A stretch of 20,709 nt of DNA from a virus (Duplodnaviria > Heunggongvirae > Uroviricota > Caudoviricetes), in IMG/VR virus record IMGVR_UViG_2690316109_000015, one strand, 5' to 3'. Below the pieces are notes generated by a model that saw only the letters and a program-made list of their open reading frames with translations, had not been told where the DNA came from and made no database searches. Position numbers and translations under genes: made by a program. This document shows positions 17,678-20,709 of the stretch, in pieces. Positions within the stretch are counted from its first letter, which is position 1, and every line of letters starts with the position of its first letter.

Positions 17678-18375
17678 AAAACATCGCCGCACAGATGATT
17701 AACTTTGACCGTGAGCAGATGCGTCGGATCGCCAACAACATGCCGGAACAGTACGACGAAAAGCCGCAGGTACAGCAGGTAGCGCAGATCATCAACGGTG
17801 TATTCAGCCAGTTGCTGGCAACTTTCCCTGCGAGCCTGGCTAACCGTGACCAGAACGAACTGAACGAAATCCGCCGCCAGTGGGTTCTGGCTTTCCGGGA
17901 AAACGGGATCACCACAATGGAACAGGTTAACGCAGGAATGCGCGTAGCCCGTCGGCAGAATCGACCATTTCTGCCATCACCTGGGCAGTTTGTTGCATGG
18001 TGCCGGGAAGAAGCATCCGTTATCGCCGGACTGCCAAACGTCAGCGAGCTGGTTGATATGGTTTACGAGTATTGCCGGAAGCGCGGGCTGTATCCGGATG
18101 CAGAGTCTTATCCGTGGAAATCAAACGCGCACTACTGGCTGGTTACCAACCTGTATCAGAACATGCGGGCCAATGCGTTGACTGACGCGGAATTACGGCG
18201 CAAGGCTGCCGATGAACTGTCCTGTATGACCGCACGAATTAACCGTGGTGAGGCTATACCTGAACCAGTAAAACAACTTCCTGTCATGGGCGGTAGACCA
18301 CTTAACCGGGCTCAGGCTCTGGCGAAGATCGCAGAAATCAAAGCTAAGTTCGGACTGAAAGGAGCCAGTGTATGA
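17674..18375 (+). CDS. P: Replication protein P (DnaB helicase loader), lambda P (233 aa)
   Basis: 233 aa MKNIAAQMINFDREQMRRIANNMPEQYDEKPQVQQVAQIINGVFSQLLATFPASLANRDQNE...; recognised as lambda P; ATGA overlap with the O stop. Confidence 0.95.
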   Translation: MKNIAAQMINFDREQMRRIANNMPEQYDEKPQVQQVAQIINGVFSQLLATFPASLANRDQNELNEIRRQWVLAFRENGITTMEQVNAGMRVARRQNRPFLPSPGQFVAWCREEASVIAGLPNVSELVDMVYEYCRKRGLYPDAESYPWKSNAHYWLVTNLYQNMRANALTDAELRRKAADELSCMTARINRGEAIPEPVKQLPVMGGRPLNRAQALAKIAEIKAKFGLKGASV

Positions 18376-18665
18376 CAGGCAAAGAGGCAATTCTTCACTA
18401 CCTGAAAACGCACCGGACTTTCTGCGCGCCGGATGTAGCTGCGGCAACAGGCGTGACTGTAACCAGCATCAATCAGGCAGCAGCCAAAATGGCACGGGCA
18501 GGAATCCTGGTCGTTGATGGCAAGGTCTGGCGAACGGTGTATTACCGGTTCGCTACCAGGGAGGAGCGGGAAGGAAAAGTGAGCACGAACCTGATTTTCA
18601 AGGAGTGTCGCCAGAGTGCCGTGATGAAACGGGTATTGATGTTTTGGGGGAGGGTAGGGGTATAA
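18372..18665 (+). CDS. ren: Ren-like protein (97 aa)
   Basis: MTGKEAILHYLKTHRTFCAPDVAAATGVTVTSINQAAAKMARAGILVVDGKVWRTVYYRFATREEREGK...; close to lambda Ren as I recall it; ATGA overlap with the P stop. Confidence 0.85.
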   Translation: MTGKEAILHYLKTHRTFCAPDVAAATGVTVTSINQAAAKMARAGILVVDGKVWRTVYYRFATREEREGKVSTNLIFKECRQSAVMKRVLMFWGRVGV

Positions 18666-18953
18666 GCGAAACGTTATGAGTGTGTGGGTATTCGTGCCAT
18701 TGCGATGTGGTAGAGAGTGCTGAGGGCGTCATGGTTGTGTTGCGAAGACTACGTTGCACTTGAGCAGGATCTTGCAGAATTTGAGCGCGAGTTCCGTGTT
18801 GCTGATGCGACTATACCCTCGATGTAGAGGAACTTAATTAGCTGATTGTAATTCAATATGCCTACTAAGGCCGGTTGGGTATGAACTAGTAAAGGCTGCA
18901 AAATCCTATAGAGTGTTAACGCAACCAAAAACGTTAAGCACGGAGAAAAAAAC

Positions 18954-19706
18954 ATGGATCCTAAATTACTGTATGCCACGTTTAAACGAAATGACGCACC
19001 AGCTTGGCGCTGCCCGAACTGTATGAATGAAACACTGGAGATTGTCGCTGATAGTTTTGTAGAAACTGATTCAAGCGCAACAACTCAGTTTAGAGATGAA
19101 GTATGGTTTGATGAGGAAATGTCGGGAGGAGTATTCAGTTGCGTGCTGCGCTGTACCCGCCAAGCCTGCCAGGAGAAGGTTGCTTTGTCTGGGCAGGTTG
19201 TTGCTGTAGAATGCTTCAATGACGAAATGACGGAGCGTTGGTATGTTTCTGGTTTCCGTCCTAAGTATTTCTATCCACCACTTCCTCTATTCCTGTTTCC
19301 TGAAAAGTGCCCTGAAGATATAGCTGATCTCTTGGCGGAAGTATCAGCTCTGATCCCCTCGCACCCAGCTTCAGCGGTGAACACCATGAGAACCATACTG
19401 GAGATGATGCTTGATAGTCTTGATGTACCAAGAGAGAAAACAGTTAAAGGCAAGATAATACGTCTTTCTACGCATGAAAGAATCACATATTATTCAGATA
19501 AACTGGGACCAAATAAAGATGCATTCATGGCGTTAAAGTGGTTGGGGAATCACGGCAGTCATGGAGGGATTAAAGTCACAAGGTCCTCTATTAATGATGC
19601 CTGCATTCTCATTGGTCATTTGATTGACTTCTTATTCTTAGAAAGCCCGGATGTAACTATTCATATTGAACGGATAAACAACGTGTATGCACCCAAAAAG
19701 GAGTAA
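18954..19706 (+). CDS. Hypothetical protein (250 aa): N-terminal Cys4 zinc-ribbon-like region plus C-terminal HEPN/DUF4145-like segment with non-canonical motif
   Basis: GGAG at 8-nt spacing; Cys pairs WRCPNC ... CVLRCTRQAC; C-terminal LKWLGNHGSHGG aligns with the RNNLFHG motif of the downstream 160-aa protein but lacks the Arg; lower GC than flanks by eye. Confidence 0.65.
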   Translation: MDPKLLYATFKRNDAPAWRCPNCMNETLEIVADSFVETDSSATTQFRDEVWFDEEMSGGVFSCVLRCTRQACQEKVALSGQVVAVECFNDEMTERWYVSGFRPKYFYPPLPLFLFPEKCPEDIADLLAEVSALIPSHPASAVNTMRTILEMMLDSLDVPREKTVKGKIIRLSTHERITYYSDKLGPNKDAFMALKWLGNHGSHGGIKVTRSSINDACILIGHLIDFLFLESPDVTIHIERINNVYAPKKE

Positions 19707-19717
19707 AACGTAACGCC

Positions 19718-19966
19718 ATGTCGAAGCAGAATATTGCCGCTAAAACACAAGAAGAGCGCGAGAAGGTTAACGTTGACCTTGCTGTCTCCTGAGTTACCTA
19801 CAAAGAGCGCCTTAATATACCGGTTATTGCCGAAGCGGTGATGCGTGAGCAGCCTGAGCATTTGCGGGACTATTTTTTGGAGCGGCCACGACATTACCGC
19901 GAGCAGAGCATCGCGCTGCCCAAGGCATCCACTCCTCGACATCTTAAGCAGGAAGGTGAAAAATGA
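19718..19966 (+). other. Small reading frame (82 codons) interrupted by one in-frame TGA (19790-19792), ending in an ATGA overlap with the next gene
   Basis: MSKQNIAAKTQEEREKVNVDLAVS[61 protein letters not shown]; its TGA stop (19964-19966) overlaps the ATG (19963-19965) of the 160-aa gene; no good SD at 19718; internal ATG at 19841. Confidence 0.3.
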
Positions 19967-20445
19967 TAAGTGCAGAAGGACTGCAGCGGTTACTTAATTT
20001 ATCGGAGCCTCCATCTGATGAACTGATTGATGTTTATCTTCAATTCTGCATGATTTTTCCTAGGGTCGAGCAAAGTTTTTTTGGTGGCTTTGCTAAGGGG
20101 GAAGACAGTTTAAATTATGCGCGAACGTTACTTGACGCCGGGATAAAGGTGCCCAACGAACTTTTTCACGATTTTAAGCAGAGATACATTTTGAACGGGG
20201 ATGCGCAGGAAAGACTTGACGCCCTCTGTGTCGGTCGAGAGAGAGATAGGCGGGGAATAGTTAATGGACTTCAAAATGACGCAGCAACAGATCTAAACAC
20301 CATGTCTACAGTATTAAAGATAGTTATAAGGATAAGAAATAACCTTTTCCACGGAAATAAAGAAGCTTATCTTTTTGTTGATTCTCAAGAGCAAGCGCAA
20401 CTATTGAGGTGGTGCGTGAGATTTCTCCAAGGATTATTAAATTAA
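19963..20445 (+). CDS. HEPN-like protein (160 aa) with canonical R-x4-H motif (putative RNase-type toxin/abortive-infection effector)
   Basis: Motif [11 protein letters not shown] (R-N-N-L-F-H = Rx4H) near the C-terminus in a predicted helical context; non-lambda cargo replacing nin-region genes. Confidence 0.6.
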
Positions 20446-20709
20446 TCTACCTTTGATTTTCCATAATCAACCAGCAATAATAATGTCACCGGAGCCTGAA
20501 CAACATCGGTGACTTCTGCGCTAAACGGGGACGTTTATGCGCACATACAATCTAAACTCTCTTTTGCTGTCACAGATGCAGAAATGCACCTGCGATTTTT
20601 TGCATCCAGCGTTTGACCTCTGCGTAACCGGCTCATTTAAACCGTCTGGTCTGTTTCCTCCGGCTCTACAAAAATAATGTCCATCATTTTTAATGGACAC
20701 TATCGTATG

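Follow-up and report, generated by a model that had tools for sequence, protein, structure and literature searches.

A probable theta-subunit (hot/holE) pseudogene with an internal stop codon upstream of a 160-residue R-x4-H protein gene in a lambdoid prophage

The locus and its prophage setting

The window, by which we mean the whole stretch of 20,709 nucleotides analysed here (IMG/VR record IMGVR_UViG_2690316109_000015, a virus of the Caudoviricetes), is a lambdoid prophage that carries O-like, P-like and ren-like genes, a gene for a DUF4145 protein, a frame related to the theta subunit of DNA polymerase III and a gene for a 160-residue protein. Judged by ORF sizes and by the annotation of Escherichia coli D9, the prophage adjoins ybhC. 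The theta frame lies on the plus strand at positions 19718–19966, in the slot usual for theta genes of lambdoid phages, after P/ren and before ninB/ybcN-ninE. It opens with an ATG at 19718–19720, 13 nt from a Shine-Dalgarno-like AAGGAG, is interrupted at codon 25 by an in-frame TGA (19790–19792, plus strand), and closes with a second TGA at 19964–19966; its length of 82 codons includes the internal stop, and the terminal stop is extra. On one side of the interruption there remains an N-terminal theta ORF that, read directly from the sequence, has 24 codons (MSKQNIAAKTQEEREKVNVDLAVS, followed by the stop; 19718–19792, plus strand), and on the other a C-terminal theta segment (19838–19966, plus strand) that counts 42 codons from a GTG at 19838 or 41 from an ATG at 19841, both of which are in the frame. 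The terminal TGA shares letters with the ATG at 19963–19965 of the 160-residue ORF (aaaATGAtaa), forming a stop-start overlap at 19963–19966 (plus strand), and the gene that begins there is intact and runs to 20445 on the plus strand. The positions of the start codon, of both stops and of the internal ATG, as well as the overlap itself, had been given in an earlier note on this DNA and proved exact.

The neighbourhood of the theta frame has a composite appearance. The P-like gene is followed by a 97-aa ORF (18372–18665, plus strand) for a Ren-like exclusion/winged-helix protein (PHROG 142, E = 1e-41), which differs by 10% between the window and E. coli NGF1, against at most 0.4% for the neighbouring spacer and DUF4145 gene, a jump in divergence that points to a mosaic recombination boundary. 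The DUF4145 protein itself (250 aa; 18954–19706, plus strand; PHROG 1305) has N-terminal Cys pairs and occupies a ren-to-theta slot of variable content. In the A35/OkiPb loci this slot holds a phosphoribosyltransferase-like and NADAR pair that RefSeq annotates as anti-phage (positions 1–1280 of L005 and L006; L numbers are our labels for the loci compared), and in Enterobacter a 633-aa NACHT protein is encoded after the 160-residue gene (L021, 5120–7021). The surroundings of the slot resemble a hot spot of accessory or defence functions in these prophages. The last ~85 bases of the window, from about 20625 to 20709, are unlike all related prophage loci; in over 2500 genomes of E. coli they match the ends of IS66-like elements, beside tnpA. 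The prophage is thus disrupted by an IS66-family insertion about 180 nt downstream of the 160-residue gene. The same exo-to-ybcN module with the theta pseudogene is found in prophages that occupy different attachment sites, by ybhC in the window and in D9 (L001, 1308–2713) and at tRNA-Thr beside proA in 14EC001 (L029, 9290–22396), and IS3-family elements truncate it in both D9 and 14EC001.

A broken member of the theta/HOT family

When codon 25 is filled, the conceptual translation of the frame gives one continuous match, spanning the stop, to the Pfam family DNA_pol3_theta (PF06440; score 101.2 bits where the cut-off is 34.6; E = 2.6e-29; covering 2–68 of the 70 profile positions), which places the frame far above chance. 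It also matches PHROG 1105, "DNA polymerase III theta subunit" (E = 6e-32). A PDB search returned P1 HOT and E. coli theta and no other solved structures: the best match was to P1 HOT (1SE7 and 2IDO, the latter a complex with epsilon186; E = 2.2e-31), E. coli theta 1DU2 was matched at E = 2.5e-18, and the further theta structures 2AE9, 2AXD, 2XY8 and 5M1S were matched as well. The NCBIfam model of chromosomal theta, NF008207, scores 95.4 bits, just short of its 97-bit subfamily threshold, which assigns the frame to the phage HOT-like branch and not to the chromosomal gene. By these sequence comparisons the frame, with its stop filled, would specify a full-length theta/HOT homologue; as it stands, the TGA at codon 25 breaks the uninterrupted ORF that a three-helix theta takes.

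Public annotation already lists this very locus as a pseudogene of theta that is interrupted by a stop. At the identical locus RefSeq gives "DNA polymerase III subunit theta", marked pseudo with the remark "internal stop", and on the NGF1 copy the remark is "frameshifted; internal stop". Theta (HolE) is a non-catalytic subunit of DNA polymerase III. Small and dispensable, it stabilises the proofreading subunit epsilon (DnaQ), which HOT likewise binds and stabilises; deletion of holE is viable, and HOT can substitute for theta (PMC2528190).

A megablast search with positions 19600–20100 against the phage collection gave no match, and tblastn was required to bring out the phage relatives. The hot gene of P1, phage-borne and of the same family (PF06440), is 68% identical to the window's frame over all 82 residues (tblastn), but it is intact, has a late promoter and lies in a different genomic context, whereas the window's copy is broken and sits in the lambdoid nin region. 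The theta proteins of HK639 (gp60; Escherichia), CobraSix (gp65; Enterobacter) and RothD (Klebsiella) are 73–76% identical to the frame and are encoded in the same slot, from P/ren-like to ninB/ybcN-ninE. In these three phages theta is intact and is followed by other small genes, whereas the window's theta is broken and is followed by the 160-residue gene, a member of phrog_27260. E. coli theta is a more distant match that shares with the frame the fold family and the conserved core motifs (KVNVDLA..GV.(Y/F)...).

A nonsense codon at an invariant glycine

The residue lost to the internal stop is a glycine found in all 119 of the closest database homologues (100% conservation). At the aligned position HK639 and RothD have GGC; the codon is GGA in CobraSix, GGT in P1 hot and GGA in Enterobacter relatives, and it is GGA or GGC in the intact copies of Enterobacter, Klebsiella and Salmonella described below; GGA becomes TGA by a single G-to-T transversion. 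By megablast, 56 complete E. coli genomes carry the locus. A census that used the 81 bp around the stop as query counted 52 complete E. coli genomes, of which 34 are identical to it and 18 are of the NGF1 type, with two mismatches at 19795/19796. The TGA was read directly in all four sampled E. coli genomes (D9, 14EC001, A11 and NGF1) and in ten of ten metagenome contigs (L011–L020); for the 18 NGF1-type genomes it was checked in the NGF1 copy, and all 52 genomes are consistent with TGA.

Alignment with related prophages, which the earlier note had proposed as a check on whether the TGA is conserved, has a clear outcome: the stop is kept only in an E. coli allele that is at least 96% identical, and all diverged homologues carry GGN, which marks it as a lineage-specific nonsense mutation and not a recoding site. 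The nearest genuine proteins after this allele are about 80–82% identical, and the GTDB species representatives, scanned for the exact pattern with NNN in place of the stop, contained no match. One catalogued protein of 83 residues (P0001, 96% identical) was considered as an intact allele and rejected: it has Trp at both TGAs, in the manner of a code-4 gene call, the DNA of its contigs still has TGA, and no table 11 translation gives it. From this distribution the nonsense mutation is real, has a single origin and is fixed in the E. coli allele.

Theta and the 160-residue gene in other genera

Intact 82-residue theta genes that overlap a 160-residue gene by 4 nt are present in Enterobacter cloacae (L021/L022), Klebsiella aerogenes (L023/L024) and Salmonella enterica Braenderup (L025/L026). 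The 160-residue proteins of these cassettes are 76–79% identical to that of the window, the two-gene order is the same, and so is the junction gaaggtgaaaaATGA, which is borne by L021 (4001–4728), L023 (2771–3483), L025 (2756–3483), L027 (2756–3483) and L028 (2760–3483). The window also shares the theta C terminus ...KQEGEK that is specific to the cassette of theta and the 160-residue gene; it differs in that theta is intact in the three genera, with GGA or GGC at codon 25, and has TGA in the window. A close 160-residue homologue directly follows theta in every locus examined, that is, in the four 160-residue clusters looked up and in the theta-anchored E. cloacae locus. The association does not extend further: 160-residue relatives at 41% and 34% identity (L030 and L031–L033) have no adjacent theta, and theta, with 542 family hits against only 8 clusters at 90% identity for the close 160-residue family, occurs mostly without the 160-residue gene. 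Beside a broken theta the 160-residue ORF is intact in the window, D9, 14EC001 and OkiPb. In some other E. coli lineages the 160-residue gene is itself knocked out, by stops in place of K45 and K133 in A11 (L003, 1864–2346) and of E93 in the NGF1 type (L004, 1863–2345), and decay extends to the whole cassette in these cryptic prophages.

From these gene neighbourhoods, the linkage of theta with the 160-residue gene is best read as the shared descent of one mosaic module, and would not reflect an obligate partnership. It is improbable, by our estimate, that the pair forms a functional cassette, or that traces of a full-length Gly25Trp theta are still made through misreading of UGA. A functional cassette might, for example, serve accessory or defence purposes, the R-x4-H protein encoded by the 160-residue gene working together with a phage theta docked on epsilon, or being kept in check by that theta. 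Were this true, the repeated loss of theta (twice in E. coli, and again in Enterobacter mori and L028) would mean selection to uncouple the two genes. Shared descent is the better fit, because the distant relatives of the 160-residue protein are not encoded beside theta.

Probable decay rather than recoding

Sequence features beyond the stop codon itself bear on whether the frame still serves a theta. Among the 49 alignment columns with a conservation of 90% or more, the window's theta departs from the family at six (D15E, A23V, G25 to stop, A27T, D72T and Y75H) and keeps the other 43, compared with a family mean of 1.15 departures; only one of the 119 homologues reaches six. It is also off-consensus at Trp/Phe4, where it has Q, and at Leu/Val57, where it has P. 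The NGF1-type allele of 18 genomes has an extra 1-nt deletion at 19908, and between the window and NGF1 theta diverges by 3.6% against 0.13% for the adjacent DUF4145 gene. The theta changes within the lineage amount to about five non-synonymous and three synonymous substitutions and one frameshift, too few to prove neutrality, and pairwise dN/dS between genera is uninformative for the E. coli branch, dS being saturated.

Beside the same 160-residue gene, theta has been lost independently in several relatives. The theta of Enterobacter mori has a stop at codon 63 (dN 0.06 and dS 0 relative to E. cloacae); that of L028, a contig of Enterobacter quasiroggenkampii, is frameshifted and heavily substituted; and A35/OkiPb carry a different theta remnant that is without its 5' end, has a 55-nt internal deletion and is joined to the same 3' end. 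Truncated theta sequences recur in phage genomes as well, SEN34 matching residues 1–49 only and D6 residues 1–32 only (tblastn), and separate PHROGs exist for theta fragments; loss of this accessory gene is therefore commonplace.

The earlier note had listed readthrough or recoding of the stop among its readings. By this account, leaky or programmed reading of the UGA as Trp or selenocysteine would still yield a functional full-length theta, and it could draw on the frame's being open and theta-like beyond the stop in the window-type allele, on the stable keeping of the TGA in 52 genomes, and on the near-cognate reading of UGA by tRNA-Trp, which takes place at a low level in E. coli. The confinement of the TGA to one near-identical allele among homologues with GGN speaks against it, as does the sequence that follows: the 3' flank forms no stable hairpin (minimum free energy -10.4 kcal/mol, compared with a mean of -12.3 for shuffled sequences; z = +0.72), a search of positions 19600–20100 against Rfam, with E values up to 10, gave no match, and TGAG, with G as the next base, is not known as a leaky context. 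Trp or selenocysteine in place of the invariant glycine would probably harm the fold, and the frame downstream is shifted in 18 genomes and has further changes at conserved positions. We therefore give readthrough very little credence; as read from the sequences, the evidence points to decay of theta over recoding.

The junction and the start of the 160-residue gene

The Shine-Dalgarno sequence of the 160-residue gene, GGAAGGTG, lies within the last theta codons (19951–19958, plus strand). It ends 4 nt before the ATG at 19963 and pairs with the 3' end of 16S rRNA at -12.4 kcal/mol, a value more extreme than the 5th percentile of the window's 414 ATGs, whose median is -3.85. A scan of positions 18300–20709 for promoters and terminators gave counts no higher than those of shuffled sequences. 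All cassettes, from four genera, share one and the same junction gaaggtgaaaaATGA whether theta is intact or broken, and the ATGA overlap persists where the theta frame has been destroyed, in NGF1, A35/OkiPb and L028. The overlap is therefore ancestral, inherited from the intact cassette. Judging by the strength and placement of its Shine-Dalgarno sequence, the 160-residue gene can probably initiate by itself. Contrary to what the earlier note had argued from the ATGA, an inherited junction together with a strong Shine-Dalgarno sequence of the gene's own leaves the overlap no argument for present translation of the distal part of the frame, and the conservation of the 3' end of the dead theta is explained by the ribosome-binding site that it carries.

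These observations also bear on a second proposal of the earlier note, a 41-residue peptide started at the ATG at 19841, or, in our wider form, one of 42 residues from the GTG at 19838, which would couple translation into the 160-residue gene through the ATGA. Both start codons exist in frame and the frame does end in ATGA, but neither codon has a Shine-Dalgarno sequence: anti-Shine-Dalgarno pairing amounts to -5.3 kcal/mol at zero spacing for the ATG and to -3.5 for the GTG, near the window median. The ATG is simply Met42 of theta, within a conserved stretch and at a position where 65% of the homologues have Met. The downstream gene has a strong Shine-Dalgarno sequence of its own behind an ancestral overlap, and OkiPb keeps an intact 160-residue gene though deletions disrupt the segment that would encode the peptide. 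Coupling of this kind is accordingly hard to credit.

The 160-residue protein

The protein encoded downstream of theta belongs to phrog_27260 (E = 4.6e-93), a cluster with no function assigned in PHROG, and it matched no family in Pfam, NCBIfam or PADLOC; neither PADLOC nor NCBIfam offers a model for the two proteins that flank theta. A profile search collected 174 remote relatives, mostly of 155–180 aa. Across 89 aligned relatives E36, R74, R123, R125, N127, H130 and K133 are invariant, and R125-N-N-L-F-H130 forms an R-x4-H motif of the R-x4-6-H type that characterises HEPN domains. The AlphaFold model built from the alignment of 89 relatives is all-alpha (pLDDT 94.6) and has no significant structural match in PDB or BFVD. 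HEPN_RiboL-PSP was matched weakly by just two of the 89 relatives, and an hhalign comparison of the family with the neighbouring DUF4145 protein gave no relation. That the 160-residue protein is HEPN-like is plausible but unproven.

The earlier note had envisaged a recently inactivated small partner gene, for example an antitoxin. The inactivated gene stands; the antitoxin does not, the small gene being theta of the hot/holE type by Pfam and PDB. The broader form of that idea, in which the small gene is the antitoxin or partner of a HEPN-like 160-residue toxin within a toxin-antitoxin or defence module, accords with a small upstream gene that overlaps its neighbour by 4 nt, with the invariant R-x4-H motif, with the close 160-residue homologue directly after theta in every locus examined, and with defence-type neighbours (the phosphoribosyltransferase-like and NADAR pair, and the NACHT protein). 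Yet the small gene is itself a genuine theta/HOT homologue, and its family is far wider than that of the 160-residue protein (542 hits against 8 clusters), and the 41% and 34% relatives of the latter are not beside theta. Membership of HEPN is, as said, unproven. Moreover, the 160-residue gene is intact in the window, D9, 14EC001 and OkiPb, where theta is broken, and a toxin deprived of its antitoxin should not be tolerated, which makes a toxin-antitoxin relationship highly improbable on the present comparisons.

Interpretation

A sequencing or assembly error in the record, also raised in the earlier note, may be set aside as having a negligible chance, since independent complete genomes, of numerous hosts and countries, share the same base, as do ten metagenome contigs from different studies. 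We conclude, with a probability of roughly nine in ten, that the frame at 19718–19966 is a pseudogenised prophage homologue of hot/holE from which no functional theta is made. A single G-to-T transversion would have turned the GGA codon of the invariant Gly25 into TGA, so that initiation at the ATG at 19718 would yield a product of 24 residues at most, deprived of two of the three helices of theta. The mutation would have arisen once, in an E. coli lambdoid module, and spread with this module among mostly defective prophages, while the host's own holE would cover the theta function. As far as the sequences of the prophages indicate, the dead allele has either spread by recombination among defective prophages or persisted in them. 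Its retention would be due largely to its last ~15 nt, where the Shine-Dalgarno sequence of the 160-residue gene lies, and to its stop, which overlaps the start of that gene; the remnant of theta would persist by serving its neighbour as 5' leader and ribosome-binding region.

Taken by itself, the frame is an ordinary pseudogene in a decaying lambdoid prophage, labelled as such by the NCBI pipeline in about 50 E. coli genomes. Protein catalogues can nevertheless list such pseudogenes as falsely intact, when short metagenome contigs are called with TGA read as Trp, and entries of the P0001 type are a trap when the conservation of a stop is judged from protein databases. The 160-residue R-x4-H protein is the only element of the locus with some discovery potential. 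For the organisation of such modules, the pseudogene illustrates that an ATGA stop-start overlap can be left over from an ancestral pair of genes and does not in itself show that translation takes place today, and that the 3' end of a dead gene can survive as the ribosome-binding site of the gene that follows it.
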